Below, piece after piece: positions 12,630 to 52,639 of a DNA stretch of 64,000 nt. The position numbers were made by a program, and so were the translations under genes. The DNA comes from Spirochaetia bacterium (GTDB taxonomy: Bacteria > Spirochaetota > Spirochaetia > CAKZLE01). Every line of letters starts with the position of its first letter. The first letter of the stretch is position 1. Location: positions 4,064,001 through 4,128,000 of the forward strand of contig OY782041.1 of NCBI GenBank assembly GCA_963677595.1, given 5' to 3'. The notes under the pieces are model-generated. The model made no database searches and was not told the origin of the DNA. It saw only the letters and a list, made by a program, of their open reading frames with translations.

Positions 12630-13852
12630 AGAAACAACGAAGAGACGAGAGACAGCGAGCTGTTGAGGCATGGAGGATCAGCCTGCGGGAGGCCTTCTCC
12701 CGCATTCCCGACCCACGTGACGTGCGGGGTAAGCGGTACCGGCTTGATGACATTCTCATCCTGGCGACCTACGGGACCCTCTGGGGATTCACAGATTTCG
12801 TGAATATGTGTGCGGAGCTGGAATACCACCTGAACTATTTCCGGCAGTTGCTTGGGGTTGAGCGGATACCGTCACATGACTGTTTCTCGGCAACCTTCGC
12901 AGCGATAGACTCTGAACAGTTTATGACCTGTTTCATGGAATGGCTGTCCCAGATTCTGAGCTCGAGGGGCAAACACATCGCCATAGACGGCAAAGCCGTC
13001 AGAGCGGCCTGTGAGAAAGCCCACTCGAGCTACGTGCCGTACATCCTGAATGCTTTCCTGGTGGAGGAAGGCGTGCTGTTCAGCCAGATGCAGATCGATG
13101 CGAAGAAGAATGAGATTTCGACGATCCCGGAGTTCCTCGACTGGCTCGACCTCAATGATTCGATCGTTACTATCGATGCGATAGGGGCCCAGTACGAGAT
13201 TGCCGATAAGATCGTGGCCAAAGGCGGGGTGTATGTCCTGCCGGTGAAGCTGAACCAGCCGTCACTGCAGCAGGACATCAAAGAGTACCTGGAGAATTAT
13301 GGAGAGCCGGATTTCGATGACATCTCCTACCTGGAGACCGTCGACAAGGACCACGGGAGGATCGAAACCAGGAAATGCTACTACTCGGAGGATGTGTCCT
13401 GCCTCGAGTTCCAAGAGCACTGGGGCACGGTCAAGGCGATCGGTATGCTGGAACGACAGCGGATCGTGCTCAAGGATGCAGTCGATAAGAAAACCGGTGA
13501 GATCGTGAACGCCGATGAGGTGTCAGAGGAGCTGGTATGCTACATCATGAGCGCACCGCTTGGTGCTGAACAGTTCATGCACATCGCACGCGATCATTGG
13601 AAGATCGAGTTGTTCCATTTCTCTCTTGATACGTCCTACCTTGAGGATCGGTGCACCGCCAGGAAGGGGAATGCCATGCAGAACCTCTCCCTGCTGAGGA
13701 AGCTCGTGATGAACCTGACCAAGCTTGATGACGACCCAAAGATGGTGAAAAGCTCTCAGAAAGGCCGGCAGATCCATTACCGTCACAGCTATGCGTCCTG
13801 TGAGAAGCTGCTGTTCGGAATCCTCCCAAGAAGGTACCAGGATCTCTTGTAG
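12614..13852 (+). CDS. ISAs1-family DDE transposase
   Basis: IPDPR..RGKRY, IPSHD, IAIDGK, KKNEI, TIDAIG, VKLNQ, HGRIETR, HWKIE..H..LD...ED. Confidence 0.95.
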   Translation: MGHSVKKQRRDERQRAVEAWRISLREAFSRIPDPRDVRGKRYRLDDILILATYGTLWGFTDFVNMCAELEYHLNYFRQLLGVERIPSHDCFSATFAAIDSEQFMTCFMEWLSQILSSRGKHIAIDGKAVRAACEKAHSSYVPYILNAFLVEEGVLFSQMQIDAKKNEISTIPEFLDWLDLNDSIVTIDAIGAQYEIADKIVAKGGVYVLPVKLNQPSLQQDIKEYLENYGEPDFDDISYLETVDKDHGRIETRKCYYSEDVSCLEFQEHWGTVKAIGMLERQRIVLKDAVDKKTGEIVNADEVSEELVCYIMSAPLGAEQFMHIARDHWKIELFHFSLDTSYLEDRCTARKGNAMQNLSLLRKLVMNLTKLDDDPKMVKSSQKGRQIHYRHSYASCEKLLFGILPRRYQDLL

Positions 13853-17028: not shown

Positions 17029-18204
17029 CTAGAAGAACTCTTCCGGGTCGATGGCGACCCCGTCCTTGGTGATCTTGAAGAAGAGCATCGGGGTGAGGAT
17101 CCTCCCGGTATTGCCCATCGTCCCGATCCTATCCCCCTGTTCCACGGAGTTGCCTACCTCGACGTAGAGCCTGTCGAGATGGCCGTAAGTAGTCTGGTAG
17201 CCGTTGTCATGGTCGATGACGATATACCTGCCGAGATCTCCCTGGTTGTTCTCCACGGCGATGACGGTGCCGGTATTGGCGGCATCCACCCGGGTGCCGA
17301 GTTCATCCTCGATATACACCCCGTCAACCCTCTTGATCTCGCCGGTGATGATATCCTCCATGGAGGAGGCGAACCCGTAGGTTATCCTTCCTTCAGCAGG
17401 CCGGGTGAAGAGCGTGTTCATGACGATCTGGTAGTCTTCCCTGCTGATGACCCGGTTCGGGATGAAGAGCCTCTCCCCGATCCTGATCAACGAGGACTTG
17501 AGTCCGTTCACGTCCGCTAAGGTCACATACCCCATACCGTAGCTGTAGGCGATGACCGAGAGGCTGTCCCCAGCCTTGACGGTATACATCTGCCCGTCGC
17601 GATCCGGGATGCTAAGGCTCATGCCCACCTTGATGTCATTCACGTCCGAGATGCTGTTGACACTGATCACAGTCTCCGGGAGGAGGCCGTAGGAGGCAGC
17701 GATACGGTTGACCGTATCACCGGCCTTGACGGTATAGGACGTATAGGAGACCGGTGTGTTCGAGATCTCACCGGCTTCTTCGTAGGCAGGGCCCTCCGGT
17801 TTCGGAACTGTATCTTCGACCGGCTCCCCTGCCTCCTCGGCAGGCTCATCAGCCGGTTCCTCCGCAGGAGCTACCGGTACAGGGGCCTCTTCCGAAGGTG
17901 CGGGGGTATCGACCGGTTCGGTGACATCAGGTTCTGCTGCAGGGACGGCCTCCGGGACCTGGATGATCTCCCCGAGGGCATCCTCCACGGCCTCGTCATC
18001 CGCGATGACGATCGAATCCAGTTTCTCAGCGGCGCCTTTCTCAGCAGTGTTGTCGCTGCGGATCAGCAGGACGATGGCGCCGACAGCCAGGAGGATCAGG
18101 ATGATGATGACAGTCGTGATGATGTTCTTGATCGTCCTGAACCTGCGGTCCTCTTCCCGCGCCTTCGGATCTGAGGACATATCGTCATATGATTGATGGG
18201 CCAT
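17029..18204 (-). CDS. Membrane-anchored 2xLysM + degenerate M23 (LytM) domain protein, NlpD-like
   Basis: N-terminal TM, Pro/Glu/Ala linker, YTVKAGDT and YTVKAGDS LysM repeats, TYGHL...G.MGNTG M23 fold lacking Zn ligands. Confidence 0.85.
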   Translation of the reverse strand: MAHQSYDDMSSDPKAREEDRRFRTIKNIITTVIIILILLAVGAIVLLIRSDNTAEKGAAEKLDSIVIADDEAVEDALGEIIQVPEAVPAAEPDVTEPVDTPAPSEEAPVPVAPAEEPADEPAEEAGEPVEDTVPKPEGPAYEEAGEISNTPVSYTSYTVKAGDTVNRIAASYGLLPETVISVNSISDVNDIKVGMSLSIPDRDGQMYTVKAGDSLSVIAYSYGMGYVTLADVNGLKSSLIRIGERLFIPNRVISREDYQIVMNTLFTRPAEGRITYGFASSMEDIITGEIKRVDGVYIEDELGTRVDAANTGTVIAVENNQGDLGRYIVIDHDNGYQTTYGHLDRLYVEVGNSVEQGDRIGTMGNTGRILTPMLFFKITKDGVAIDPEEFF

Positions 18205-18258: not shown

Positions 18259-19932
18259 ATGGATTCCAGAGGAAAAAAACTGTTTTACTATTTGCTCGTC
18301 TCTCTGACAGTCATTGTGACAGGCGTCATGATCGTCCATTATGCGGTGATCATGTTCCCTTCCGACACCAGGGAATACCATGAGCCCCTCGTCTCGAGCC
18401 GCGTCCAGCGGGGTACGATCTATGACCGCAACGGTACCATCCTCGCCTATGAGACCCCCTACTACTCCTGCGCCGTCCTCATCCGGGAGATCGACTCGAT
18501 CTCAGAGACCGCCGATGACCTCTCGCTCCTGCTCTCCATGGACCGACAGGATATCTTCGACAAGCTTGATGCGAGCACGACCTATGCACTGGTCAAGAAA
18601 CGTCTTGACGACGCCGAATATAAGCAGCTGCGGAGCGCGATCGACAGCGGGGACCTGCCCGGCGTTACCTTGGAGAAGCGGTACGGCAGAGTCTACCCGC
18701 AGCTTCAGCACGGAGCCCATGTCATCGGGTTCACCAATATCGACAATGTCGGCCTCGCCGGGGTCGAGTATACCTTCGACAGGCTGCTCTCCCCCCTGCC
18801 AGACCCCTCGAAGGACATCACCTACGGGGATGACATCTATGTGACCCTGGACCACAGGATCCAGTACTCAGCAGACGTCCACTGCCGGGAGCTCGCCGAG
18901 GAGCATGACCCTGACAGCGCCACGGTCCTCGTCATGGATGCGAAGACCGGGGAACTCCTCGCATGGACCTCCTACCCCTGGTTCGACCTCAACGCCTACA
19001 ACACCGCCACTGCCGAGCAGCGGCTCAACCGCCCGATCAACTCGATGTATGAACCCGGCTCGGTCTTCAAGGTCTTCTCACTGGCCTCCATCCTCGCTGT
19101 CGGGGAAGCGAACACCAACGAGATCTTCCTCTGTGACGGTTCCTACACCTTCACGATGCCGAACGGCAAGTCAGCCACGATCAACTGCCTTGCCGAGCAT
19201 GGGGAGGTCGGGCCGCGGGAGATGCTCAAGTACTCCTGCAACGGGGCAGTCGCTTCCTGGTCCCTCCAGACCGATGACGATCTCTTCTATGAGTACCTGA
19301 ATGCCCTGGGGTTCAATGCGAAGACGGGAATACAGCTCCCCGGCGAGGCTTCAGGGATGATCCAGCCGGTCTCCAACTGGTCTGGCCGGTCGAAACCGAC
19401 GATCGCCTTCGGCCAGGAGCTCGGCACCACCGCCCTGCAGATCGCTGCTGCGGCAACGGCGCTCACGAACGCGGGGGAACTGCTGAAGCCGAGGATCATC
19501 CATGCAGTGTTCCACCAGGAGGACGGGACCTTCGAGTATCCGGGAAGGGAGGTCGTTCGTGAGGCCCTCCCTCCAGAAGTCGCTGCGAACGTGCTTGATA
19601 TGATGCAGGCTGGTACGGAACCGGGAGGGACAGCCGTGTTCGCGAAACGGGACGGCGTCGCTGTGTCAGCGAAGACGGGGACCGCCCAGCTGCTCGATAT
19701 CGAGACGCATACCTACTCGCCTGACCATGTCCTCGCATCGACGCTGGCTATATTACCGGCTGACGACCCGAAGTACATCATCTACGTCTCTGCAGACAAT
19801 CCCAAGGGGGGACAGTACTATGGGAGCCGCGTCGCGGCCCCTACGATCGAGAAGATCACCTCTGACCTGGTCTCCATGGGACTCCTCACGAGTGATGAGA
19901 GCGAGATCCTCTATCTTTCCGATGACCTCTGA
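18259..19932 (+). CDS. Class B penicillin-binding protein (FtsI/PBP2-like transpeptidase)
   Basis: N-terminal TM, RGTIYDRNG, R.YP, G.AG.E, EPGSVFK (SxxK), YSCN (SxN), KTGTAQ. Confidence 0.92.
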   Translation: MDSRGKKLFYYLLVSLTVIVTGVMIVHYAVIMFPSDTREYHEPLVSSRVQRGTIYDRNGTILAYETPYYSCAVLIREIDSISETADDLSLLLSMDRQDIFDKLDASTTYALVKKRLDDAEYKQLRSAIDSGDLPGVTLEKRYGRVYPQLQHGAHVIGFTNIDNVGLAGVEYTFDRLLSPLPDPSKDITYGDDIYVTLDHRIQYSADVHCRELAEEHDPDSATVLVMDAKTGELLAWTSYPWFDLNAYNTATAEQRLNRPINSMYEPGSVFKVFSLASILAVGEANTNEIFLCDGSYTFTMPNGKSATINCLAEHGEVGPREMLKYSCNGAVASWSLQTDDDLFYEYLNALGFNAKTGIQLPGEASGMIQPVSNWSGRSKPTIAFGQELGTTALQIAAAATALTNAGELLKPRIIHAVFHQEDGTFEYPGREVVREALPPEVAANVLDMMQAGTEPGGTAVFAKRDGVAVSAKTGTAQLLDIETHTYSPDHVLASTLAILPADDPKYIIYVSADNPKGGQYYGSRVAAPTIEKITSDLVSMGLLTSDESEILYLSDDL

Positions 19933-20789
19933 TGTGACATGAGCCGCCTCACCAGGCCGCTGATCCCGGTGCCGAGCGAGTTGATGATGATCTGGTTGTC
20001 GATGATCTGGGCCATCTCCTGCATCTTCACTGATGCGGGACATTCAGGATAGCCGTCGACGAAGGGCTTGCGCTCGAGGATCGAGTTGCGGACCTTCCGG
20101 TCCTCTGTGATCGTCCCGAAGTGCTTCACATGCAGGCCGAGGAAATGGACGGCAGCACCCTTGAGCTTTGCATAGATCCGATCTCCCTGCTCCTCGGTGA
20201 ACGCCCTGTTCACGATGATGTTCAGTTCCGGAAGCATGGAACGCTTCGCCCGGGAGAGCACCTTGATCACCCCGTAGGCATCCTGGAGCGAGGTCGGTTC
20301 CGGGTTCACGATGATGAATGCATCCTCGGCAGCCAGGACGAAGTCGATGACGTTCCTCGTGATCCCCGCACCGGTATCGATGATCAGGTAATCGGCCTCA
20401 GAGAGTTTCTGGAGTTCACGTATGAAGAGCTTCCGCTTGTGGTCCGGGAGGTTCGCGATGCTGGCCATCCCCGAGACCCCGCCAATGACCTTCATGTTCC
20501 GGTAGCGTGTCGGTACGATGACATCCTGTATGCTTCTCTTCCCACTCAGCACATCAGCCAGGGTGTACTTGGGGCGTATCCCGAGCATGATATCGACATT
20601 GGCCATCCCTAAGTCTGCATCGAGCAGGAGCACCTTCTTACCCGACCTTGCGAGCTGGACCGCCAGGTTGACCGCGATGCAGGTCTTCCCGACCCCGCCC
20701 TTCCCGCTGGTCACCGTGATGATCCGAGTCTCTCTCCTGGTCATATTCCGCAGGGTCTCAGCCTGGTCGGTCACAGCGTCTCCCTCCAT
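19911..20789 (-). CDS. flhG: MinD-like ATPase FlhG/FleN
   Basis: N-terminal DQAETLR (DQAxxLR FlhF-activator helix), SGKGGVGKT, DADLGMAN, IDTGAG, PEPTS..DAY. Confidence 0.92.
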   Translation of the reverse strand: MEGDAVTDQAETLRNMTRRETRIITVTSGKGGVGKTCIAVNLAVQLARSGKKVLLLDADLGMANVDIMLGIRPKYTLADVLSGKRSIQDVIVPTRYRNMKVIGGVSGMASIANLPDHKRKLFIRELQKLSEADYLIIDTGAGITRNVIDFVLAAEDAFIIVNPEPTSLQDAYGVIKVLSRAKRSMLPELNIIVNRAFTEEQGDRIYAKLKGAAVHFLGLHVKHFGTITEDRKVRNSILERKPFVDGYPECPASVKMQEMAQIIDNQIIINSLGTGISGLVRRLMSHQRSSER

Positions 20790-21859
20790 TCGTTCACGTC
20801 ACCTATCTGGAAGTTTGCCAGGTCCACCGAGAACCCCTGGAGCTTCTGGAGGAAGAGCCCCTCCGTCATGGGCAGGAGGTCCTGCGGGACCCGCTGTCCC
20901 GTCGCCAGGTAGAGGACGGGCAGCTCCACCTCATGCATGAGGCTGATGAGGTTCCCGACGAGTTCCGTCTCATCGAGCTTGGTGAAGATGAGGCTCGAGA
21001 TGGGGAAGTCCGCGAACCGGTCGATCATGCGGTGTATATCGGAGTTCTTCATGGAGGCGGAGACCGCCAGCACGAAGAGGGCGTCCCTGCGGTTGATGCA
21101 GGGGGTGAGGACATCCACCATCTCCTGGTGGATCTCCACATCCTTGGGACTCTTCCCGATCGTGTCGATCAGGACGATGTCGGTCTCCTCAGTCTCCGCA
21201 AGCATGGCCTTGAGCTGCTTTTGCGTCCTGACCTCCTCCACCGGGATGCCCATGATCTCCCCGAAGGTGGTGATCTGGGCACGGGCACCGATCCGGTAGC
21301 TGTCGATGGAGATGATCCGGATGCTCTTCCGGGCAGTTTTCCCCTTTGCATCCATCCCCTGGAGGGCTGCGATCTTGGCGATGGTGGTGGTCTTCCCGAC
21401 ACCGGTCGAACCGAGCAGGATGAACCCGTGAGGCATGGCGATCTGGTGCTTCCGGTCGACCTTGATGCTGTCGCTTATCCAGGAGAGCACCTTGAGCTCG
21501 GTGAACTCATGGTCGTCGAGCTCCTCAGGCTCGCACTCCTGCTTCAGTCGGTCGATGACATAGCTGACATAGGCAGCCGTGAACTCGTTGGCGATGAGGA
21601 GCTCCCTGATATGGCTGAAGTCTCCATCACAGAAGAGCCGCTTCTGCGGCTCGGGCTCCTTACGGACGACCTCGGTACGAGGTGCAGGCGTCTCGATGAT
21701 GTAGGCGGAGACCTCGAAGATGTCGCGACGGCCTATCCCGAGAAACCCCCGCTTCTCGATATGCTTCGTTGAGTACACCCGTATGTCAGCACCATACTGC
21801 CTGTGCAGCCTGGAGACCGCCTCATCGTAGGAGGAAGCCCGCTCCGTCACGTATTCCAT
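20771..21859 (-). CDS. flhF: SRP-family GTPase FlhF
   Basis: [41 protein letters not shown]; N-terminal KRGFLG. Confidence 0.92.
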   Translation of the reverse strand: MEYVTERASSYDEAVSRLHRQYGADIRVYSTKHIEKRGFLGIGRRDIFEVSAYIIETPAPRTEVVRKEPEPQKRLFCDGDFSHIRELLIANEFTAAYVSYVIDRLKQECEPEELDDHEFTELKVLSWISDSIKVDRKHQIAMPHGFILLGSTGVGKTTTIAKIAALQGMDAKGKTARKSIRIISIDSYRIGARAQITTFGEIMGIPVEEVRTQKQLKAMLAETEETDIVLIDTIGKSPKDVEIHQEMVDVLTPCINRRDALFVLAVSASMKNSDIHRMIDRFADFPISSLIFTKLDETELVGNLISLMHEVELPVLYLATGQRVPQDLLPMTEGLFLQKLQGFSVDLANFQIGDVNEWRETL

Positions 21860-21883
21860 AATCTCTTCTGGGATCTCCTTCCC

Positions 21884-23263
21884 CTACAGGATGTACCGGC
21901 TCAGGTCCCGATCCTCCATGATATCCTGCAGCCGGTCATCCACGTATTGTTCGGTGATGGTGATCGTCTGCCCGGTGAGCTCACTGGCGTTGAAGGAGAC
22001 ATCCTCGAGCAGCCGCTCCATGATGGTATGGAGCCTCCTGGCCCCGATGTTCTCCGTCTTCCGGTTCACTTCTGCCGCGATCTGGCTCATCCTGCGGATC
22101 GAGTCATCGGTGAACTCGATCTCGACGTTCTCGGTCCGGATCAGCTCGGTATACTGCTTGGTGATCGCATGCTCCGGCTCCCGCAGGATCCGGTAGAAGT
22201 CATCACTGGTGAGGTCGTTCAGCTCGACCCGCAGGGGGAACCGCCCCTGGAGTTCGGGAATGAGGTCCGACGGCTTGCTCATATGGAAGGCACCGGCCGC
22301 GATGAAGAGGATGTGGGAGGTGTCGACCATCCCGAACTTGGTATTGACCTTGCAGCCCTCGACGATGGGGAGGATATCTCTCTGGACCCCTTCTCTCGAT
22401 ACATCCGGCCCGCCGCCCCCGTGCTTGCCGATGGCGACCTTGTCAATCTCATCGATGAAGATGATCCCGAGCTGTTCTACCCGGTCCTTGGCTATGTCGC
22501 TTGCCCGGTCCATGTCGACGAGCTTGTCCATCTCCTCCTCGAGCAGGAGTTCCTTGGCACGCTTGACAGTGACGCTCCGTTTCTTCTTCTTGCCGCCGAA
22601 GATGTTCCCGATGCTGTTCATGGCATTCTGCAGGTCATCCATCGACCCCCCGGCCATGATCTCGACCCCTGAGGCAGGCTTGTTCGATACGGAGACCTCG
22701 ATCTCGCGCTCATCGAGCTTACCGTCCCGGAGCATCTTGCGGAACTTTTCCCGCGTGCTGGTCTTCTCGCTCTCCCCATCCGGTGCGACGACGATGACGT
22801 CCGTCTCCTCAGAGGCTTTCTCCGGCTTCTTGGCCTTGACCCCGGGCAAGAGGAGGTCGAGCAGGTGCTCCTCAGCACGCCGCTTCGCCTCTTCCTCGAC
22901 AGCCTCTGCCAGTTCTGACTTGACCATCGAGACGGCAACACTCATGAGGTCCCTGACCATCGACTCGACATCACGGCCGACATAGCCGACCTCGGTGTAC
23001 TTGGATGCCTCGACCTTCACGAAGGGTGCCCCGCTGAGGCGGGAGAGCCTCCTCGCGATCTCGGTCTTCCCGACACCGGTGGACCCGATCATGATGATGT
23101 TCTTCGGGGAGATCTCCTCCTGGAGCTCCTTGGGGAGCCTTCTCCTCCGAACACGGTTCCGCAGGGCAATGGCGACGACGCGCTTGGCCTCGTCCTGCCC
23201 GATGATGTATTTATCAAGTTCCCTGACGATCTCGGCAGGTACCATCTCATCCAGATTCCTCAT
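21884..23263 (-). CDS. hslU: ATP-dependent protease ATPase HslU
   Basis: [53 protein letters not shown]. Confidence 0.98.
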
Positions 23264-23796
23264 GCTTCCAACTCCTCGACAATGATGCTCCCGTTCGTGT
23301 AGATACAGATCTCCGATGCGATCTCAAGCGCCTTCCGTGCCGTCGTTGCGGCATCATAGGCATCCACATCCATATAAGCCCGTGCCGCGGCATAGGCGTA
23401 GGACCCGCCGGAACCGATCGCGATGCAGTCATGCTCAGGCTGGACCACGTCCCCCGTCCCCGAGATGAGGAAGGTGACATCCTTGTCCGCCACGATCATC
23501 ATGGCATCGAGCTTCTGCAGGGTCCTGTCGGTCCTCCACTCCTTTGCCATCTCCACGGCAGCCCGGGTCAGGTCACCGTCATACTGGGAGAGTCTCTTCT
23601 CTATCAGCTCGAAGAGCGTGAAGGCATCTGCCGTCGCGCCGGCGAAGCCGGTGATCACCCGGTCATGGTAGAGCCTGCGCACCTTCCGTGCGTTCCCCTT
23701 CATGACGGTATTCCCCAGGGTGACCTGTCCGTCACCCGCTATTGCCACGCTCCCGCCCTTCCTGACGGCTAATATGGTGGTCCCTCTAAAACTCAT
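23260..23796 (-). CDS. hslV: ATP-dependent protease subunit HslV
   Basis: [37 protein letters not shown]; start re-set to the ATG after SD AGGAG. Confidence 0.96.
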
Positions 23797-24712
23797 CGTT
23801 AGTTCTCCTTCCATGCGGATGGGCATCAGTATACACATCCTTCAGCCGCTTCACGCTGACATGTGAATAGATCTGGGTCGTCGAGATGTTCTCGTGCCCG
23901 AGCAGCTCCTGCACTACCCTGATCCCTGCGTCGTGGTCGAGCAGCTGGGTAGCGAAGGTATGCCTGAATGTGTGCGGCGTCACGTGTTTTTCTATCCCTG
24001 TCTTCTTCGCATATGTTTGAAAAATATAGTGAACACCCTGCGGAGTCAACTGTTTTCCCTGTTTATTGATAAAAAGTGAGGACGTGCGCACCGGATCGGC
24101 ACCAAGGCCCTCAAGATAGGTGCTCCTCAGCCTCAGGTAGGTCCCTATATCCGAGACAGCAGAATCAGAGAGGAAGACAAACCGGTCCTTGCTCCCCTTG
24201 CCGTGGACGATGACCCGACCCCGGGGAAGGTCGAGGTCCTTCACCTCCATGGCCAGCAGTTCCGAGAGCCTGCAGCCCGTCGAGTAGAGGACCCGGAAGA
24301 TCACCCGGTCGCGCATGCCGAACACGTCGTGGCCCGGGGCGTGGATGAACCTCCGCACCTCCTCGACAGTCAGCACAGCAGGGAGGGTCCGCTGCCGCTT
24401 CATGCTCTTCACCAGGGAGAAGGGGTTCTCCGAGACGATCTCGAACCGAAGGCAGTAGGCGTAGAAGGTCTTGACCCCGGAGATGATCCGGTTCATGCTG
24501 CTCTCGCTGTAGGAATCACGCTTGAGACCAGTGACGAAGCGCCTGGCGTCCTCGAAACGCAGAGAACCGAATACCAGCCCCTGACTGCCGATGAATGCGC
24601 CCAAGAGCTTCAGGTCATGCGCATAGGCACTGACCGTGTGGTCAGAGAAGTTTCGTATATCGCGGCAGTAGACGAGATAGGAATCGATCGCGGCATCAAG
24701 GTCAGGGTTCAT
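23786..24712 (-). CDS. xerC: Tyrosine recombinase XerC-like
   Basis: [33 protein letters not shown]....TTQIY. Confidence 0.85.
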
Positions 24713-25682
24713 CGTTCCTCCAGATCACAAAACGTTGGGAGCCGTACCAGATCACCTTCTCCACGCTGCTCCCCTGCGGGGGAGCACCCTGCGTGACCTG
24801 CAGTCCCATTGTACCATTCCCGCCTACGGCCCTCAATAGGTCCTGTAGGCTTTCGACCACCACGGCCCCGTCCTCTGCCAGCTTCCGGGTACCGTCCGAC
24901 CGCGGGGAAGCACACATGGCCCCGTCCACGAGAACGTCCCTTCCCTGCTCGAGCGCGAAGTCAGCCGTGATCAGCGCACCCGAGGCTGCGGGGGCCTCGA
25001 CGATGCAGACGGCGGAGCTCAGCCCGCTCAGCAGCCGGTTGCGCTTGGGGAAGGTCCATCGCTTCGGGCCCATCCAGGGAGGGAACTCCGTCAGCACCCC
25101 TCCCCCTGCATCGATCATCTTCCGGCAGAGGCTGATATGCGCCTTGGGGTAGATGCTCTCCAGCCCGCTCCCGATCACCGACCAGGTCCTCCCGCCCGCA
25201 CCAGCTGCCCCGGCATGGGCTGCCGCATCGATCCCGTAGGCCAGGCCTGAGAAGACAGGGCATCCTCCCAGGGCCAGCGAGGCACCGATCATGAAGGCAC
25301 GGTGTATGCCGGCTGTCGTTGCCCGCCGGGTGCCCACGACCGCGACCCCGGCCGCGGCAGGCGGCAAGTTCCCCCACACGTAGAGCAGGTAGGGGGGATC
25401 GTAGATATGCCTGAGCAGGGGCGGGAACTGCTCATCCGCTGCACTGAGGAGGCTGTACCCCCCTCGGGCACATGAGTTTGCTGCCATGTCTGCCTGGGAA
25501 CTGAGCTTCGTACGGTCATAGACCGAGGATGCGTACCTCCTGCCGATCAGGCGTGAGATAGCACGGTGGTCGAGGGTGAGGATCGTCCTGGTATCAAGTA
25601 GGCTCTCGATCCTCTGTGCTTCAGCCGCTGACAGGTTCGGTATGAGGCTGATGCACAACTGCTTGTATCGGTAATCATCCAT
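24702..25682 (-). CDS. dprA: DNA-processing protein DprA (Smf)
   Basis: PP.LLYVWG, VVGTR, SGLAYGIDAAAH, FPKRNRLLSGLS, VEAP..SGALITA.FALEQGR. Confidence 0.93.
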   Translation of the reverse strand: MDDYRYKQLCISLIPNLSAAEAQRIESLLDTRTILTLDHRAISRLIGRRYASSVYDRTKLSSQADMAANSCARGGYSLLSAADEQFPPLLRHIYDPPYLLYVWGNLPPAAAGVAVVGTRRATTAGIHRAFMIGASLALGGCPVFSGLAYGIDAAAHAGAAGAGGRTWSVIGSGLESIYPKAHISLCRKMIDAGGGVLTEFPPWMGPKRWTFPKRNRLLSGLSSAVCIVEAPAASGALITADFALEQGRDVLVDGAMCASPRSDGTRKLAEDGAVVVESLQDLLRAVGGNGTMGLQVTQGAPPQGSSVEKVIWYGSQRFVIWRNDEP

Positions 25683-25720
25683 TGGTTTCCTCCATACCTA
25701 CTATGAACAGGAAAAAACCG

Positions 25721-26632
25721 TTATTGATTCAAATCTTCGATCTCCGGGAGGAATTTCTTATGGTAATCCTGCAGTTCGTCCGTGCAGATGTGCGTGTAGA
25801 TCTGCGTGGTGCTGATGTCGCTGTGGCCGAGCAGCTCCTGCACGACCCTGAGGTCGGCACCGTTTGACAGCAGGTGTGTCGCGAAGGAGTGGCGGAGGGT
25901 ATGCACCTTCGATTCCAGCCCCGCGGCAGCGGCATATTTCCTCACCATCCTCCAGGCGGCCTGCCTGGTCACGTCCGTCCCCCTGGAGGAGAGGAACACG
26001 CTCTTGGTCATCCTGCCCGGCTTGAGGTATTCCGGTCCGCGGACCTCTTTCATATACCTCTGCAGCCAGTAGAGGGCGACCTCCCCGATGGGGATGATCC
26101 GCTCCTTGGATCCCTTCCCGATGACCCGCAGGAGCTCTTCGGAGAAGAAGATATCTGAAACTTCAAGGCCTACCGCCTCGCTCACCCGCAGGCCGCAGGA
26201 GTAGATCAGCTCGATGAGGGCCCGGTCCCGGATGCCCATCAGGCTGTCAGTATCGATCCGTGCGAGGAGTTCCTCTACCTGGGAGACCGTCAGGACCGAG
26301 GGGATCCGGCGTGAGACCTTCACGCGCTCGACCCGGTCTGCCGGGTTGTCGCTGCGGAGACGGTCATGCTGGAGGTACCGGAAGAAGGACCTGATGACCG
26401 TGACGGCCTTCGCGATGGTCCTGGCATCGAGGCCCCGCTCGCTCTTCTCGGAGATGTAGGAGATGAGCCCGGCTGGATCGACTGCGAGGGCATCGGTCCC
26501 GATTCCCTCGAGATGCTGCAGGAACAGCTCGCTCTCCCGCATATAATCGCTGACCGTCGACTCACTCAGCCGGAGTTCGACGGTCAGGTAATCCTCATAG
26601 TGATCGAGGAGGGTTCGTGAGGCAGGGAGCAT
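25721..26632 (-). CDS. xerD: Tyrosine recombinase XerD-like
   Basis: [60 protein letters not shown]. Confidence 0.88.
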
Positions 26633-26637
26633 CTGTG

Positions 26638-27834
26638 CTATTTCTTCTCCCGTGAGTAGCGCAGTGCTGCCGGGTAGGAGAGATCATCTGATGTCTTCCC
26701 GGGACTCTGCATCCGCTCCTTGAGGTCCTGCCACCGGTCGATGGTGATGACCTCCTGGGGGATCTCCCGCTTCTCCGGCTCAGGAGGCTTCCTGAAGCCC
26801 ATGAGGTTCTCACTCTTGTGCTTGGTACTGAACTCCTCATAGGAGGGTTCCTGGCGATCGAACCCGGTAGCCACGAGCGTCACCTTGAGCTTGCCCTCGA
26901 GGTTGGGGTTGTGGGACTGGCCTGCGATGATCAGGGCATCCTCATCTGCATTCTCCGTGATGATCTCGACCACGTCCTGGTACTCCTTGAGGGTCAGGTC
27001 ATCCCCTCCCGAGAGGTTCACGAGGATCCCCTTCGCGCCCTCGATCCGTGCGTTCTCGAGCAGGGGGTTGTTGATCGCCTGCTCGGCAGCGATGATGGCG
27101 CGGTCAGCACCTTCTCCCACGCCGATGCCCATGAGCGCGTCGCCGCGTCCCTTCATGACGGTCCTGACGTCGGCGAAGTCAATATTGATCTCACCCGGTT
27201 CGGTGATCAGCTCACTGATCCCCTGCACGCCCTGCCTGAGGACGTCATCGGCGATCTGGAAGGCCTGCTTGATCGGGGTATTCGCCTCGACGATCTTCAG
27301 CAGGTACTGGTTCGGGATGATGATGAGGGTATCGACGCACTTCCTGAGACGCTCGATCCCTTCTGTTGCGAGGGTCTGCTTCTTCTTTCCCTCGAAGATG
27401 AAGGGGGTGGTCACTACCGCCACGGTCAGGGCATTCATGCTCTTGGCGACCTCGGCGATGGCAGGTGCCGCACCGGTACCGGTTCCGCCGCCCATCCCGG
27501 CAGTGATGAAGACCATGTCGGTGCCCTCGATGATCTTCTTGATGTCATCCTCGGACTCGATGGCAGCCTGCTCCCCGATCTCGGGGATACCGCCGGCACC
27601 GAGCCCCCCGGTGAGCTTCGACCCCAGTGGGAGGCGCTTCTCAGCCTTTGACCGCTGCAATGCCTGCACGTCGGTGTTGAGGGCAACATACTCGACGTTC
27701 TTCAGCCCTGCGGCAATCATCCGGTTGATCGCGTTCCCGCCGCCACCGCCGATGCCGAGGACCTTGATGACCGTAGGGGTCGAACGTTCCATAATATAAT
27801 CATCTGAATTCGGTAATATCTCAATGTTCATCAT
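26638..27834 (-). CDS. ftsZ: Cell division protein FtsZ
   Basis: [35 protein letters not shown]; SD GGAGG. Confidence 0.99.
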
Positions 27835-27852
27835 ATTCCTCCCCACTGCCTG

Positions 27853-29097
27853 CTAGAACAGTGTCTCAAATACATTCTTTATCTTCGATCCCAATCCACG
27901 CTTCGGCCTGGAATCAGGTTTGACCTCGATCACACCGCTTCTTCTTGCATCATAGAGGACCAGGCCGATCGCCGTCGAATACCGGAGATCGAACTGGTTC
28001 ACGTCGAAGCCGTCGAAGGGTTTGAAGCTCGCCCGTCTTGCCGGCCGGTCGAAGAGCTCTGCGGCGAGCTCGGTAGCCCCAGGCATCATGGCCCCGCCCC
28101 CGGTCAGGGCAACGCCCCCGAAGGAGTGGAGCAGCCCGCGCTTGTCGAGCATGTTCCGCAGCATGGCGAAGGTCTCGGCGACCCGGGGTTCGATGATCTT
28201 GCAGAGCTCCTTCCGCGGCATGCGGATGGACGGCAGCCCCCCCACCTGGGGGAGGATGACCATCTCATGGTCATCGATCATCGGCTCATAGCATGACCCG
28301 TGGGCGATCTTCATCTCCTCGATCAGCTGCAGGGGCTGGTTGAGCACGAAGGCCAGGTCAGCGGTGACCTGGGACCCCCCGATGTCGATCCCGCCCACGA
28401 AGACCGGGGCACCGTGGAGGTAGCCGACCATATTGGTCATCCCCGCCCCGAGGTTGATCAGCAGCGTCCCCATCTCCTTCTCGTCACTTGAGAGGAGCGC
28501 CTCCGAGTCAGCGAGCTGCTGCAGGACCCGTCTCTTGGTGATCAGGCCTGAGCGCTTGATGCACTTGTCTATATTCTGGGAAGCGGTGACCGAGCCGGTC
28601 ACGATCATGACCTTCGTCTCGAGCCGGTGGCCGATCATGTCGATAGGGTCCTTGATCCCGCTGCGCCCGTCGATGCTGAAATCCTGTACCAGGGTATGGA
28701 GGATCTCCCGGTCGAGCGGGAGCTCGAACGCCCGTGCGACCTCCATGGACCGGTAGATGTCATCAGACCGAATCTCCTGGTCCTTGGAATGGATGCCTAC
28801 CACCCCCTGGGACATGAGCCCCTCGATATGGCTGCCCGAGACGCCGGTGACGATCTGCTTGATCTCACATGCGGCCTCGATCTCGATCTCCCGCCTGATG
28901 TTCGAGATGATCCCGATCACGGACTCTATGTTGATGATGTTCCCGGCACGTACCCCTTCGGCATGCTGTTCCTTGAAGGCAATGATCCTGACACTCCCGT
29001 CCGGCTGCTTCGCACCGGCGACTGCGCAGATCTTCGAGGTCCCGATATCCAAGCCGAGGATGGTATTGTCTGTAACCAAAACATGCTCCTTTCTCAT
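27853..29097 (-). CDS. ftsA: Cell division protein FtsA
   Basis: GLDIGTSKI, DPI.M.G.RLE, EKEMG, GG..VT.D, LTGGGA, C-terminal amphipathic helix. Confidence 0.95.
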   Translation of the reverse strand: MRKEHVLVTDNTILGLDIGTSKICAVAGAKQPDGSVRIIAFKEQHAEGVRAGNIINIESVIGIISNIRREIEIEAACEIKQIVTGVSGSHIEGLMSQGVVGIHSKDQEIRSDDIYRSMEVARAFELPLDREILHTLVQDFSIDGRSGIKDPIDMIGHRLETKVMIVTGSVTASQNIDKCIKRSGLITKRRVLQQLADSEALLSSDEKEMGTLLINLGAGMTNMVGYLHGAPVFVGGIDIGGSQVTADLAFVLNQPLQLIEEMKIAHGSCYEPMIDDHEMVILPQVGGLPSIRMPRKELCKIIEPRVAETFAMLRNMLDKRGLLHSFGGVALTGGGAMMPGATELAAELFDRPARRASFKPFDGFDVNQFDLRYSTAIGLVLYDARRSGVIEVKPDSRPKRGLGSKIKNVFETLF

Positions 29098-29865
29098 CTA
29101 CTCACCACTCTCTATCATATAGGTATCAAATACCTTATACTGAAGCAGGGAACCAGATGACTCACTCTTCCCGATCAACAATGCAGCTCGAACAGCCTCT
29201 TCAAGCCTACCCCCAGATATGGGGTTATATAATATCAGATCCAAGGGGAACCCAATATATGTAATATGTATCGTGATTGCCTTACTGTTATTTGTACCGT
29301 ATTTTACCTCCGATATCAAGTTATATATATCAGCTGCGGCATTCTTTAATTCATTAAGCATGGGAATATATCGCAAGGCATCACGTATGCCCTCCCCGAC
29401 TGCTTCACTGCCTGTCGGCTGCTGGTCCAACTCGATGAATGGGATGGTGTTGCGCAGCCTCGATACCAGCTTCTCATAACCTTCGAAGGTCGTCCCGTCG
29501 CTGTTCACGACCGTCTCGACATCGGCGGAGAAAACGGCTATCGGCACCTTGGGGACGATCGTGATGAACAGCGACCCGGGATACTTCTTCCGGACGCTGC
29601 AGCTCTCGATGATCCCGAACCGTTCCAGGTAATCGGTGATCCGCCGTTCGTCGGCATCCGGGTAGCTCAAGCCCCTGAGTGATTCCAGGTAGCTCTCTGC
29701 CTCGGCCGGCAGGACCGCCTGGTCAGTCAGCCCGTGGATCTCGATATAATCGATCGTCTGCCTCGGATAGACCAGGGTCAGGAAGACGATCGAACCAGCC
29801 GCGGCAAGGCCTATCAGTCCAATGAGTATGCTTGCTGTCAATCTGATGTGCCTTCCTGCCAACAT
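29098..29865 (-). CDS. ftsQ: Cell division protein FtsQ/DivIB
   Basis: Single N-terminal TM, POTRA-like segment (V.KKYPGSLFITI...PIA), located between ftsW and ftsA. Confidence 0.75.
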   Translation of the reverse strand: MLAGRHIRLTASILIGLIGLAAAGSIVFLTLVYPRQTIDYIEIHGLTDQAVLPAEAESYLESLRGLSYPDADERRITDYLERFGIIESCSVRKKYPGSLFITIVPKVPIAVFSADVETVVNSDGTTFEGYEKLVSRLRNTIPFIELDQQPTGSEAVGEGIRDALRYIPMLNELKNAAADIYNLISEVKYGTNNSKAITIHITYIGFPLDLILYNPISGGRLEEAVRAALLIGKSESSGSLLQYKVFDTYMIESGE

Positions 29866-29872
29866 CCTCCCC

Positions 29873-31048
29873 CTATTCGAAATCTATAGCCCGGGACTGC
29901 CCGGGGTCTTCGTCAGGCTCCGGCCTGACCGGTTCACGCTCGGCGATGATCTTCACCAGCAGCCCGCACATGCCGAGGTTCATGAGCAGGTTGGTCCCCC
30001 CTGCCGAGAAGAACGGCAGCGGGATCCCCGTGGGGGGCACGATGCCGCTCACCACGCCGATGTTCAACAGTACCTGCCAGATGAGGATATGGGAGATGCC
30101 GAACCCGGTCAGGTAGAGGAAACGGCTGCCATCCTCGTGGCGTGCCGCCCCGCGATACCCCATATACACCAGCAGGAAGAAGGCGATGATCACGAGCAGG
30201 ACCCCGATGAAGCCGAACTCCTCGGCGAACGAGGCGAAGATGAAGTCCGACTGCACTTCCGGCAGCTTCCCGAGTTTGTAGGTCCCCTGCCCGAACCCCT
30301 TGCCGAACAGCCCGCCTGAGGCGATGGCATCCAGTGATATATTCACCTGGTAGTTGATCCCCGACGGGTCGATATCCTTGAAGATGAACCCGATGACCCG
30401 CTTGAGCCGGTACTCCTCCGTCAGGAGGAGCAGGATCCCGGGGATCCCTGCCAGGGCCAGGTAATAGACGAGGTAGGAGACCTTCACTCCACCGATCAGC
30501 AGGATCGAGAAGCAGAGGAAGAGGAAGACCATGGTGGTCGAGTAGTCACGCTGGATGATGATGAGCAAGGCTGAGAAGAAGATCATCGCGATGGGGACGG
30601 TCGCCACCCTGAATGAATCGAGAGTCTTCTCCTTCTTCGTCAGGTAGCTCGCCAGGTAGAGGATCACCGCCACTTTCAACAGTTCCGAGGGCTGGAAGCT
30701 CAGCGGACCGAGCCGCAGCCACCTCGTGGCACCGAGACGGGTCTCGCCGAGCGGCGTGAAGGAGGTCAGCCCCATGAGGATGAAGCTCAGGATCAGCAGT
30801 GCGGGGATCATCATCCTGATGAAGGAGATCGGCAGGTAGTAGATGACCGCAGCTGCGGCACATCCAGCCGCGGCGAAGATGAGCTGCCTGCGGAAGAAGT
30901 AGTCCACCGGGAGGTCAAGGCGCAGTGCCTTGTCGTACGAGGCTGAGTAGAGTGTCGCCAGCCCGATACCAAGAAGAAGCAATACGAGCATGGTGCCCAT
31001 GATTGCTTCTTTCCGGTTGTTGTCCTGGTAGTCCTGCAGATTCTCCAT
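29873..31048 (-). CDS. ftsW: SEDS glycosyltransferase FtsW
   Basis: GATRW, QPSELLK, YQ....AIASGG, LPE.QSDFIF....EEFG, P.TGIPLPFFSAGG. Confidence 0.95.
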   Translation of the reverse strand: MENLQDYQDNNRKEAIMGTMLVLLLLGIGLATLYSASYDKALRLDLPVDYFFRRQLIFAAAGCAAAAVIYYLPISFIRMMIPALLILSFILMGLTSFTPLGETRLGATRWLRLGPLSFQPSELLKVAVILYLASYLTKKEKTLDSFRVATVPIAMIFFSALLIIIQRDYSTTMVFLFLCFSILLIGGVKVSYLVYYLALAGIPGILLLLTEEYRLKRVIGFIFKDIDPSGINYQVNISLDAIASGGLFGKGFGQGTYKLGKLPEVQSDFIFASFAEEFGFIGVLLVIIAFFLLVYMGYRGAARHEDGSRFLYLTGFGISHILIWQVLLNIGVVSGIVPPTGIPLPFFSAGGTNLLMNLGMCGLLVKIIAEREPVRPEPDEDPGQSRAIDFE

Positions 31049-31062
31049 CTCTTTTCAGCTCC

Positions 31063-32106
31063 CTACATCCTCAACGCGATGAGTAATCCTATCAGCACGC
31101 AGATCATGCTGAAGATCCAGAACCGGTGCACCACCTTCACCTCCTTCCACCCCATCTTCTCGAAATGGTGGTGGATAGGTGCCATCAGGAAGACCCGCTT
31201 CTGGCGGATCTTATAGGAAGAGACCTGGATGATCACCGAGAGTGCCTCCATGATGAAGACCGCCCCGATGAAGAGCATCAGGATCTCGTTCTGTGTGATG
31301 ATGGCGATCATCGAGAAGACCCCGCCTATGGCCATGGAGCCCGTATCGCCCATAAAGACCTGCGCTGGACCGGCATTATACCAGAGGAACCCGAGCAGGC
31401 CGCCGATCATCGAGGAGAGGAATACGATCAGCTCGATCCGGTCATCGCCCATGAACTCCCCTACCGAGGTGTGCAGCGAACCGGTGACCGAGATGAACCC
31501 GAAGACGATCATCGCCGCGAACGAGATGATCCCGAGTCCTGTCGCCAGGCCGTCCAGCCCGTCGGCGAGGTTGCAGGCATTCACCATCAGGACGATGTAG
31601 AGGATGGCGAACAGGTAGTACCAGCTGCCGAACGGTATGTAGAGGGTATCGGACCAGGGTATGTAGACCGCGGTCTTCAGCAGGGAGAAGATATCGAGCT
31701 CGAAGAGGAGGAGATAGGCAAGGATCACCTGGAGCGCGATCTTGTACTTCGCCTTGAGTCCCTCGCTGTTCGCACGATAGAGCTTCAGGAGGTCATCCCA
31801 GAGGCCGATGACGCCGAAGCCCGCGAGTGCGGTCAGGGAGATCACCACGATCCTGAAGGACCGCACCCACAGCAGGGTCGAGACCAGGATCGCGAGGATG
31901 AAGAAGATGCCCCCGACTGTCGGGGTACCGCCCTTCTTCAAGTGGGTCTCCGGCCCGTCCTCCCTGATCGTCTGCCCGATGGCATGCTTACGCTGGATCC
32001 CGATGAAGATCTTCCCCGTGACCAGTGAAATGACAAAGGCTGTAAGCCCTGCGACTACAGCCCTGAATAGGATAATCTCTGCACCAACTCCCAGATTCAC
32101 CACCAA
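31063..32106 (-). CDS. mraY: Phospho-N-acetylmuramoyl-pentapeptide transferase
   Basis: H.KK.GTPT.GG, DD, NACNLADGLDGL, FMGDTGS, SVIIQV, MAPIHHHFE. Confidence 0.96.
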   Translation of the reverse strand: MVVNLGVGAEIILFRAVVAGLTAFVISLVTGKIFIGIQRKHAIGQTIREDGPETHLKKGGTPTVGGIFFILAILVSTLLWVRSFRIVVISLTALAGFGVIGLWDDLLKLYRANSEGLKAKYKIALQVILAYLLLFELDIFSLLKTAVYIPWSDTLYIPFGSWYYLFAILYIVLMVNACNLADGLDGLATGLGIISFAAMIVFGFISVTGSLHTSVGEFMGDDRIELIVFLSSMIGGLLGFLWYNAGPAQVFMGDTGSMAIGGVFSMIAIITQNEILMLFIGAVFIMEALSVIIQVSSYKIRQKRVFLMAPIHHHFEKMGWKEVKVVHRFWIFSMICVLIGLLIALRM

Positions 32107-32111
32107 ACTCC

Positions 32112-33509
32112 TTATGATACAAGGGACAACGGGGAGAGCAGCCTCTCCATGGCCATCGCCCTTGACCCTTTCAGCAGGACCAGGTCCCCTGATTCAACAT
32201 AGCCTGTCACATGCTGTTCCAGTTCCTCATACTCATCGGTATAGAACAGCTTCTTCGAATAGTTCTCATCCTTCAGCAGCCGGTAGGCACTCTCCATCTC
32301 CTTCCCGAAGAGGAACGCGCCGTCGGGAGACAGCTTCGCCACGCGCCGCCCGATCACGCGGTGGGCCTGTGCCGTGGCGAATCCCAACTCCTTCATGGAG
32401 CCGAGTACCACACTCTTCCTCCCGTTCCAGGGAAGCTCGCTCACGTAGTCGATGATCGTGCCGGCAGCCTCCACATTGGAGTTGTAGCTGTCCTCGATCA
32501 CCGTCACCTTCCCGTCGATGACCCTGCTCCGGCCTTCCATGGGTTCGAGCCCTTCCAGGCCTGAACGGATCTGTGAGGCCGTTGCCCCGAGTCCCGAGGC
32601 AAGGGAGACTGCCGCAAGGGCATTCTTCAGGTTATGCAGCCCGATGAGCCGCAGGTGGATATCCTCCCCGTCATAGCGGAGCTTCCAGCCGCCGAGCCCG
32701 AGGGATTCCGCCCCCGTGAAACCCGGGGTGCTCTTCATCCCGAAGGGGGTGAGGTCTACCTGCCTCGACTTCCGGATATAGTTCCTCCAGACGTTATCCT
32801 CCCCGATATAGCCCTGCCGCACCGTCTCATGGAAGATCGTGCTCTTCTCGCGGACGATCGCCTCCTGGGAGCCGAACATCCCGATATGGGCAGTCCCGAT
32901 GTTGGTCATCAGGCTGATATCGGGGGTATAGACATCGAGCATCCTGCCGATCTCGCCGTGCTGGTTCGTACCCATCTCGAAGACGCCGAACTCATGCTCC
33001 CCCGTTATATTGAACACGGAGAGCGGCAGCCCGATATCGGAGTTGTAGTTCCCGGGGTTCTTCACGGTAGTCCCCAGGCCTGAGAGGATCGCGCTGATCA
33101 TCTCCTTGGTGGTGGTCTTGCCGGAACTCCCGGTCACCGCGACCTTCACCAGTCCCGGGAACCGGCTGACCCAGTTCTCGGCAAGGTCGCGCAGTGACTT
33201 GAAGGTGTCAGGGACGCTGATCACGGAGACTGCGCAGGCATCAAGCTGCAGCTGCTCATAGAGGTGGCGGTTACTGCTGCTTACCAGCAGTGCGACAGCC
33301 CCCGCAGCGACTGCGGCCTTGAGATAGCGGTGCCCGTCCGTACGCTCGCCGGGCAGTGCGATGAAGAGGGAGCCTTTTTGGACGTACCGGGAATCCACGC
33401 AGACGTGCTGAACCCATGGGTTCTCCCGACGCGTCGAGACCAGGGACCCGTTAAGGATCGCTGCGACCTCGGAGACCCGGAACAAGTTCTTCTCAGTACC
33501 ATTCCCCAT
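32112..33509 (-). CDS. murF: UDP-MurNAc-tripeptide:D-Ala-D-Ala ligase
   Basis: DSR, GERTDGH, TGSSGKTTTKE, NYNS.IGLP, EMG, DSYNSN, MKELG, KGSR. Confidence 0.95.
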   Translation of the reverse strand: MGNGTEKNLFRVSEVAAILNGSLVSTRRENPWVQHVCVDSRYVQKGSLFIALPGERTDGHRYLKAAVAAGAVALLVSSSNRHLYEQLQLDACAVSVISVPDTFKSLRDLAENWVSRFPGLVKVAVTGSSGKTTTKEMISAILSGLGTTVKNPGNYNSDIGLPLSVFNITGEHEFGVFEMGTNQHGEIGRMLDVYTPDISLMTNIGTAHIGMFGSQEAIVREKSTIFHETVRQGYIGEDNVWRNYIRKSRQVDLTPFGMKSTPGFTGAESLGLGGWKLRYDGEDIHLRLIGLHNLKNALAAVSLASGLGATASQIRSGLEGLEPMEGRSRVIDGKVTVIEDSYNSNVEAAGTIIDYVSELPWNGRKSVVLGSMKELGFATAQAHRVIGRRVAKLSPDGAFLFGKEMESAYRLLKDENYSKKLFYTDEYEELEQHVTGYVESGDLVLLKGSRAMAMERLLSPLSLVS

Positions 33510-44693: not shown

Positions 44694-44785
44694 ATGCTCT
44701 TCTTACCATGCTGATGAGATCGGTACATTATCAGGGGTGTCGCGGCGATCTGTCAAGGTTTATCAGATAATGCGGTCAGTCACGG

Positions 44786-44828
44786 TATGGATGCAGGCAG
44801 TTCCGCGAGGACCAGCCTGCATCCCATA
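44786..44828 (-). terminator. Hairpin after transcarbamylase gene
   Basis: GGATGCAGGC/GCCTGCATCC stem. Confidence 0.55.
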
Positions 44829-44842
44829 TACTGACGCTAAAC

Positions 44843-45868: not shown

Positions 45869-45906
45869 TAATCGTCATGCGTACCCGCAGGACAACTAGA
45901 TTCCAA

Positions 45907-46983: not shown

Positions 46984-47008
46984 GACGTACCCCTCTAAGC
47001 GGTTTACA

Positions 47009-47057
47009 TGTACATACATGTTTCTCTTAAATTATCATATGGCTATAGTGATGTCAA
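47009..47057 (-). promoter_or_regulatory. Leftward promoter with HutC-type operator
   Basis: TTGACA (47052-47057, minus) and a TAATTT/GATAAT -10; TGTACATACA at 47009-47018. Confidence 0.65.
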
Positions 47058-47125
47058 TATAATTGATAGTCCATAATCAACTATACTGCCGGTAGATTTG
47101 CCGCTCCTAAAAAGCCCCTTATAAC

Positions 47126-47175: not shown

Positions 47176-47192
47176 ATAAAGGTGAATAACAG

Positions 47193-50062: not shown

Positions 50063-50082
50063 TCTCACCGACTTGAAGGGAC

Positions 50083-52624: not shown

Positions 52625-52639
52625 AACGTATCGTGCCTC

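Follow-up and report, generated by a model that had tools for sequence, protein, structure and literature searches.

The locus and its features

A stretch of 64,000 nt from a Spirochaetia bacterium (assembly GCA_963677595.1, contig OY782041.1, positions 4,064,001 to 4,128,000), referred to here as the window, carries flhF and flhG directly behind hslU, at the end of a run of division and cell wall (dcw) genes. FlhF is a GTPase of the signal recognition particle (SRP) type and FlhG a MinD-like ATPase. On the minus strand the order is hslV, hslU, flhF, flhG, and the flhF ATG lies 24 nt past the end of hslU, in agreement with the spacing given in a first-pass annotation made from the sequence alone. 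The following features were delimited (window positions):

18259..19932, plus strand: class B penicillin-binding protein (PBP, FtsI-like), convergent to flhG, with a 22-nt overlap with the flhG end
19911..20774 (longest open reading frame (ORF) from 20789), minus strand: flhG, MinD-like ATPase
20682..20705, minus strand: deviant Walker A of FlhG, intact in the window genome
20748..20768, minus strand: DQAETLR activator helix of FlhG
20771..21859, minus strand: flhF, SRP-type GTPase of 362 aa, G motifs all intact
20822..21628, minus strand: NG (GTPase) domain, FlhF residues 78-346
21698..21859, minus strand: FliG-interaction domain (FID), FlhF residues 1-54, beta-alpha-beta-beta
21860..21883, minus strand: hslU-flhF junction of 24 nt, in place of the whole flgB...flhA block
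21884..23263, minus strand: hslU, ATPase subunit of the HslUV protease (TIGR00390, 647.6 bits, cut-off 362)
23260..33509, minus strand: upstream run murF-mraY-ftsW-ftsQ-ftsA-ftsZ-xerD-dprA-xerC-hslV, gaps of at most 38 nt

Given these short gaps, murF...hslV and hslU-flhF-flhG likely form one transcript. A promoter and terminator scan gave counts at chance level and nothing near the hslU-flhF junction. For flhG, the GTG at 20774, which overlaps the flhF stop codon (GTGA) and has GGAGG in front, is a more likely start than the ATG at 20789.

Below, working labels denote sampled genomes (G), families (f), genera (g) and loci (L). In the two flagellated relatives G030 and G040 the order is ftsZ...dprA-(xerC)-hslV-hslU-flgB...flhA-flhF-flhG, the ancestral arrangement on which the first-pass annotation had built its claim that everything from flgB to flhA is missing here. 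Accordingly, hslU forms the upstream side of a deletion junction. This junction is not an assembly artefact, because a contig of a second study (run X2, record 13) bridges hslU and flhF.

The product of flhF is FlhF by sequence, fold and descent. It matched PF00448 (E 3e-33) and stayed below the curated FlhF cut-offs, although those models ranked best (TIGR03499, 151.4 bits vs 174.15; PRK12723, 285.8 against 585). In a fold search with the structural model (predicted local distance difference test (pLDDT) 80-94, residues 1-50) the top three matches were FlhF, with 2px0 and 8r9r first. The protein is syntenic with, and nested among, spirochaete FlhF (FastTree, 66 rows), and Ffh and FtsY are encoded separately. 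Its motifs G1-G5 including the catalytic Arg (DxxR) are intact, GQRVP is kept, and the N-terminal B region with the FID is present. In FlhG the motifs DQAETLR, GKGGVGKT, DADLGMAN and DTGAG as well as an amphipathic C-terminal helix were found, so that both proteins are as complete as the first-pass annotation had described them. By context, however, this FlhF does not belong to a flagellar positioning system, since the MS- and C-ring partners FliF, FliG and FliM/N are not encoded in the window genome.

Flagellar, Min and shape genes in the window genome

The window genome is assembled as a single contig of 4.33 Mb, with 95.4% completeness and 6.28% contamination. FlhA, flagellin, the rod/hook C-domain, FliG and MinC all went undetected in family searches whose controls worked, and the search for chemoreceptors gave one sub-threshold match only and no true chemoreceptor. 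When flagellar queries from G030 and G040 were used in tblastn, only cross-matches were obtained (FliI to a 29-30% identical ATPase, FliA to the region of the primary sigma factor), and no match was found for flgB-flhA, flgF/G, flgK/L, fliD, flaB or fapA. The values for completeness and contamination are the one argument for flagellar genes that lie elsewhere in the genome or are absent from the assembly; against it stand the single contig, the negative searches and the absence of FlhA from all 34 further genomes sampled in five families (f1, f12, f19, f20 and f25). At this sensitivity the explanation is refuted. The flgB-flhA block was deleted and not relocated, and a complete flagellar gene set elsewhere was not found. 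FliG was found in none of the four clade genomes tested (G000, G001, G016 and G102) and was detected in the control G040. A single chemoreceptor signalling domain above the cut-off was observed in G001 (C4:129787-130230), an FlhA-less genome of the same genus as the window genome.

MinC (PF03775) was found in none of five genomes, with positive controls, while MinE was not searched for; the window genome thus lacks a recognisable MinC partner for a MinCDE system. Queries for MreB, MreC, MreD, MrdA and RodA from G040 gave cross-matches or nothing. One transpeptidase gene and one SEDS (shape, elongation, division and sporulation) gene were found, compared with 3-5 and 2, respectively, in four controls from outside the clade. 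The sole transpeptidase is the convergent PBP at 18259..19932, whose SxxK, SxN and KTG motifs are intact, as the first-pass annotation had stated; it corresponds to the FtsI that a 2012 paper lists for Sphaerochaeta. Because MreB is missing and only one transpeptidase and one SEDS protein are encoded, the cell is probably spherical, and it is predicted to be non-motile.

A probable single deletion shared by five families

FlhA was found in 224 of the 261 genomes of the class. The misses were the window genome, all sampled members of f1 (3/3), f12 (27/27), f19 (1/1), f20 (2/2) and f25 (1/1), and two others, taken as G370 and G383 from the tallies and gaps in the handles. The five families are called the clade here. 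Family f12 is read as Sphaerochaetaceae, as close homologues of the FlhF of G016 bear that name. By these searches the loss of flagellar genes reaches four families beyond the Sphaerochaetaceae, that of the window genome among them.

Among the 99 flhF loci fetched from the clade, Sphaerochaetaceae included (90 of them from 131 matches in f12), flhF followed hslU directly in 95. Three of the remaining four (G049, G076 and G113, genus g47) carry an intact flhF relocated behind a LysM/M23 gene, and one had no recognised neighbour. The flhF end often overlaps the PBP gene, and pbp-lysM-secA are common neighbours of the clade loci. In a quick HslU tree 28 clade rows lay on one side of a branch with a support of 18, while in the FlhF tree the clade was separated with a support of 76, or 92 without f25, with a long stem to f12. 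The shared junction together with the shared neighbours is a stronger sign of one origin than these trees, and since the junction recurs in 95 of 99 loci, it points to one ancient deletion that removed the flagellar operon. This agrees with the single flagellar loss reported for cultured species (bioRxiv 2025.07.04.663154).

Two other lineages were noted. G370 and G383 (family f39, genus g117) represent a separate loss, as other members of g117 have FlhA. Neither flagellin nor an FlhF orthologue nor FlhG was found in the two genomes, so that retention of FlhF is not general after flagellar loss; in G370 three transpeptidase genes and two SEDS genes remain. In family f17, genus g19 had no flagellin in 5/5 genomes tested and yet keeps fliP, fliR, flhB, flhA, flhF and fliA (L247, G021:C3:54000-65600; L292, G203; L293, G224). 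G021 also encodes fliQ, fliG, fliH and a shortened fliF, has no flgB/flgC/fliE at the locus, and its FlhF is without an FID; flhG was not found in 3/3 genomes of g19. This genus appears to be a lineage of its own that has an export core and lacks the filament.

FlhF is retained and FlhG is lost

Of 151 f12 genomes, 131 gave a match to the full FlhF profile, and 130 of these 131 genes were free of internal stops. With an FID profile, 15 of the remaining 20 genomes were matched (seven divergent long proteins, two genes cut by contig ends and six FID-only genes), so that some piece of FlhF was present in 146/151. Of the five genomes without FlhF, two also had no hslU match (86% complete), and in G086, G114 and G140 flhF is lost and hslU is followed by other genes. 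FlhF was furthermore retained in all six f1 genomes and in the samples of f19, f20 and f25. In f25 it reaches 687 aa; the linker there is acidic and very long, and the G motifs have decayed (L108 and L289, G029:C4).

FlhG was detected in only 7/67 clade genomes and in 0/56 of f12. The DQAxxLR helix is the sole motif kept in all seven copies. In four of them both Walker A and switch I are disrupted, whereas Walker A is intact in 25/25 flagellated copies; the full motif set remains in three, including that of the window genome. In conservation FlhG exceeded FlhF by a mean of 20 points in 300 flagellated pairs and by at most 1 point in 15 clade pairs. Against a close strain, with run X1 possibly the source sample of the window genome, all seven changed flhG codons were synonymous and flhF showed seven synonymous and five replacement codons, none in a motif, among the differences listed (40 of 239). 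The relaxation of selection considered in the first-pass annotation was therefore seen for FlhG across the clade but not in the window genome. Likewise, its claim that FlhFG was retained stands for FlhF; what the clade kept is FlhF and not FlhFG.

For flhF, the ratio of nonsynonymous to synonymous substitution rates (dN/dS, Nei-Gojobori) was 0.016-0.415 over 32 within-genus pairs, close to the values of xerC and pbp. The pairs are not independent and were chosen for a proportion of synonymous differences (pS) between 0.02 and 0.62; the range includes genus g53 with decayed motifs. For most pairs of the window genome's own family dS is saturated. Three Borrelia-type pairs gave 0.04-0.10. Pooled over 13 non-overlapping pairs, dN/dS was 0.12 for the FID, 0.11 for NG and 0.39 for the linker. 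To judge from these comparisons, flhF is under purifying selection with a dN/dS of about 0.1.

The GTPase motifs are less constant. The G1-G4 test was passed by 71/99 clade loci vs 25/26 flagellated loci, and decay in the other 28 affects several separate genera. Mean identity of the G domain was 40% in aflagellates vs 54% in flagellates, that of the FID 45% vs 41%, in a comparison where most aflagellate rows come from one family. In aflagellates an exposed FID motif, R-I-H-S-R-x-D, is sharpened. The FID surface is basic, and positions R27, H29, R31, D33, E49 and Y53, which are 74-90% conserved in the clade, likely face one side according to strand alternation. By sequence, decay proceeded from the FlhG ATPase motifs through FlhG itself and the FlhF GTPase motifs to the NG domain, with the FID last.

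FID-only genes

In G044, G046, G075, G090 and G112 a gene of 60-64 codons starts 1-2 nt past hslU and ends at the PBP gene. A sixth FID-only gene, in G102, has a 5' frameshift; the jag gene of the same assembly is also broken. The FID-only gene was matched to the N-termini of flagellated FlhF with a profile match of 96.6%. Its protein model (pLDDT 92.6) had the FID of Shewanella FlhF (9en1) as best fold match among 48,161 chains (Z 6.8, root-mean-square deviation (rmsd) 1.5, 45/45 aligned), tied with Jag (3gku; Z 6.5, rmsd 4.2, 58 aligned) and dodecins; Alba is a further fold neighbour. Searches of PDB sequences with FID profiles reached E 0.016 at best, a Foldseek search with the model of the FID returned nothing at E 0.001, and the protein atlas gave only unnamed clusters (best 0.90). 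Jag_N (PF14804) was hit by one of eight FID-sized queries, below threshold (E 0.018, 15.9 bits vs a cut-off of 25).

In three close pairs of FID-only genes dN/dS was 0.02-0.05 (Fisher p 2e-4 to 5e-7), while distant pairs gave 0.19-0.43 or were saturated. For FliG binding, residues 1-60 of FlhF are both required and sufficient (PMC11236974), and the FID-only genes appear to stay under selection without FliG. A separate Jag protein was found in 64/66 clade genomes. A link between loss of Jag and FID-only genomes was dropped: Jag was unfound in two fragmented assemblies but is present in G046 and G102. The spirochaete FapA (G040, L101:6297-8237), encoded three genes after flhG, begins with Jag_N (E 1e-13); as the Jag_N fold resembles the FID, the ancestral operon would have held two such domains.

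A probable second function of FlhF

The evolutionary evidence for a second function of FlhF is strong, and the FID probably binds a non-flagellar partner. Once the flagellar operon had been deleted in an ancestor, purifying selection maintained FlhF in the clade, and the protein would now serve as a tether whose FID holds this new partner, most probably at the division site. In the window genome the NG domain would still cycle GTP at the membrane, with FlhG acting mainly as an activator of FlhF via DQAxxLR and not as a MinD-like division inhibitor. After the loss of FlhG the GTPase switch would become optional and FlhF a static scaffold. The complete proposal, co-option as a tether that binds its partner most probably where a presumably spherical cell divides, comes close to an even chance without reaching it. 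Consistent with division are the position of flhF at the end of the dcw run, the presence of FtsZ in 41/41 genomes tested and the lack of detectable MinC or MreB. Mutants in flhF of C. jejuni make minicells (PMC3228812), FlhG of Borrelia localises to midcell and flhG mutants misplace septa (PMC13712777), and the N-domain of Jag, the second fold match of the FID-only model, targets midcell through MltG (bioRxiv 2020.12.18.423453). Division, which had been suggested in the first-pass annotation, is thereby the leading though unproven role. Pole selection, suggested along with it, is doubtful, as a cell that lacks MreB and has a single transpeptidase and a single SEDS protein is probably spherical.

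Several observations weigh against a role in division. G041 (1.2 Mb, 95% complete, 30 contigs) has an FlhF whose motifs are intact, encoded in an isolated hslV-hslU-flhF cassette; no match for FtsW, a transpeptidase or FtsA was obtained, and only a weak one for FtsZ. FlhF persists in clade genomes without a transpeptidase (22/66) and in those where FtsW is gone (4/66), whereas G086, G114 and G140 have lost FlhF and keep FtsZ. FlhF thus does not track septal cross-linking, since it persists in many transpeptidase-less genomes. The division effect in C. jejuni needs FliF, FliM and FliN (PMC3228812), which are absent here. The fold scores of the FID-only model (Z 6.5-6.8) lie, according to the tool, in a range common for small folds, and the identity comparison is skewed by the predominance of one family.

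The G041 cassette (L296, G041:C12:3912-6993) stands apart from the dcw genes. Genomes without a transpeptidase were found at L169-L176, L186, L204, L205, L242 and L243 and in genera g39, g46, g47, g48, g50, g52, g56, g57, g58 and g61. The PBP gene of g56 and g47 is shortened to some 290-350 residues and has lost the catalytic motifs; FtsW has diverged, or was not found (g39 and g46). Such cells may have little or no cross-linked wall.

The same retention and selection would fit equally well if FlhF were an FID adaptor for a housekeeping partner outside division, in membrane-protein insertion, secretion, RNA binding or ion transport. Intact FlhF motifs where divisome or wall genes decay (G041 and G071) and the basic FID surface with Jag, dodecins and Alba as fold neighbours argue in this direction. 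The deletable part, however, is the SRP-like NG domain, which together with the separate Ffh and FtsY speaks against SRP-type targeting, and no specific partner is supported. The N-domain of MgtE is FliG-like, and MgtE was found in 4/5 genomes tested, but also in G114, which lost FlhF; with this misfit in occurrence over five genomes, MgtE was rejected as FID partner. A housekeeping partner is regarded as somewhat unlikely. FlhF or its FID might instead be an adaptor or regulated substrate of HslUV, as flhF directly follows hslU in 95/99 loci, in 6/6 FID-only genomes and in the isolated cassette of G041. Such adjacency is expected from the deletion alone, flhF remains intact in G049, G076 and G113 despite its move, and the clade-typical HslU residues are unchanged in the three flhF-less genomes, so that no co-variation of HslU with FlhF loss was seen; we consider a function with HslUV unlikely.

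Even less probable is an intact FlhF-FlhG polarity module that replaces Min and uses the MinD-like ATPase cycle of FlhG to choose a pole or a site for division. It would account for the two intact proteins of the window genome and the purely synonymous changes in flhG listed against the close strain, and it draws on the misplaced septa of Borrelia flhG mutants (PMC13712777) and on the failure to find MinC. FlhG is, however, confined to 7/67 clade genomes, 4/7 copies have a broken Walker A and switch I while 7/7 keep the activator helix, its conservation edge over FlhF (about 20 points in flagellates) is gone in the clade, and without MreB there are probably no poles in the usual sense. The idea that flhF survives as a passenger, a remnant in slow decay that persists for cis reasons such as the end of the hslU transcript or the PBP overlap, is very improbable and largely refuted. 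The 28/99 loci with decayed motifs, the reduction to 60 codons in six genomes, the complete loss in three and the frequent overlap with the PBP gene would fit it; yet dN/dS is far below 1 even in the motif-decayed g53 and the 60-codon genes, 130/131 full-profile matches have no internal stop, truncation occurs just behind the domain boundary, the gene outlived relocation, and flhG and about 25 neighbours were cleanly deleted.

A FID partner at the division site, the preferred explanation, can be extended to a broader and tentative proposal: the FID would have a second, flagellum-independent partner, coccoid spirochaetes would have made FlhF a division-plane marker on the joint loss of flagella and elongasome, the FID-only protein would be a minimal division adaptor, and the division defects seen in Borrelia and Campylobacter when flhF or flhG is mutated may go back to this same interaction.

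To our knowledge FlhF is regarded as a flagellum-only protein, and every described FID partner is flagellar. The clade offers a natural deletion series of about 150 genomes in which the flagellum, FlhG, the GTPase motifs and the GTPase domain were lost in turn while the FID was selected, which points to an undescribed interaction, mapped to 60 residues and a few exposed positions. It also provides a flagella-free background for finding the FID partner, and it bears on septum placement without Min in spirochaetes and on the choice of division plane in spherical ones.

Other genes of the window

A membrane-anchored LysM-LysM-M23 peptidase gene (17029-18204) lies divergent from the PBP gene, at a position conserved clade-wide. 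Upstream of secA, a transposase-like ORF of 412 aa, named by its look, with a 190-aa ORF in front, occupies 12057-13852. From 43971 to 63919 a cluster encodes, as named from the ORF sequences, xanthine-dehydrogenase-like molybdoenzymes, amidohydrolases, a carbamoyltransferase, dihydroorotate-dehydrogenase-like proteins and M20-type peptidases; it probably serves nucleobase breakdown.

Comparison with known systems

The aflagellate coccoid Sphaerochaetaceae (PMC3372971; bioRxiv 2025.07.04.663154) resemble the window genome in the loss of flagella and chemotaxis with a single origin and in the loss of PBP1 and PBP2 with FtsI kept (PMC3372971, Table S3). Flagellar loss and a single PBP were thus already known, since the 2012 paper states both; a supposed conflict with that paper over PBPs was dropped, Table S3 listing FtsI as present. 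Unlike in our analysis, motility genes are described there as completely or nearly absent, none being present according to the 2012 genome paper (Caro-Quintero 2012, PMC3372971), and 'flh' does not occur in the main text. With FlhF retained, the view that motility genes are completely lacking in these genomes needs correction. In the open full-text literature no report of FlhF in these organisms was found, although subscription papers or supplements may mention it. In its available text PMC11750108 names Sphaerochaeta and FlhF and draws no link, PMC10746217 and PMC13277936 do not treat FlhF in these organisms in theirs, and some database entries bear the automatic name FlhF.

With the FlhF-FlhG switch of Shewanella, Vibrio, Campylobacter and Borrelia the locus shares orthologous genes, the ancestral order, the FID-linker-NG layout, the G motifs, the DQAxxLR activator helix and a membrane-targeting helix. 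In contrast, the searches for flagellar genes were negative, so that the known partners FliG, FliF and FliM/N (PMC11236974, PMC3228812) are absent, and FlhF of the clade mostly occurs without FlhG and can shrink to the FID. In a review flhF and flhG are described as consistently encoded together (PMC12826062).

Jag_N of Jag/EloR/KhpB and FapA has a small beta-alpha-beta-beta fold (3gku) that resembles the FID and is a protein-binding module for midcell targeting; it differs in that the FID falls below the Pfam cut-off by sequence and that the clade encodes a separate Jag protein. Closest in function would be the division regulators FlhG of Borrelia and FlhF/FlhG of Campylobacter, with the same proteins, no Min system and a precedent for division. 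The effect in Campylobacter is, however, tied to the flagellar rings, which are gone in the clade, and that in Borrelia to FlhG as an active ATPase, whereas in the clade the ATPase motifs of FlhG decay first.

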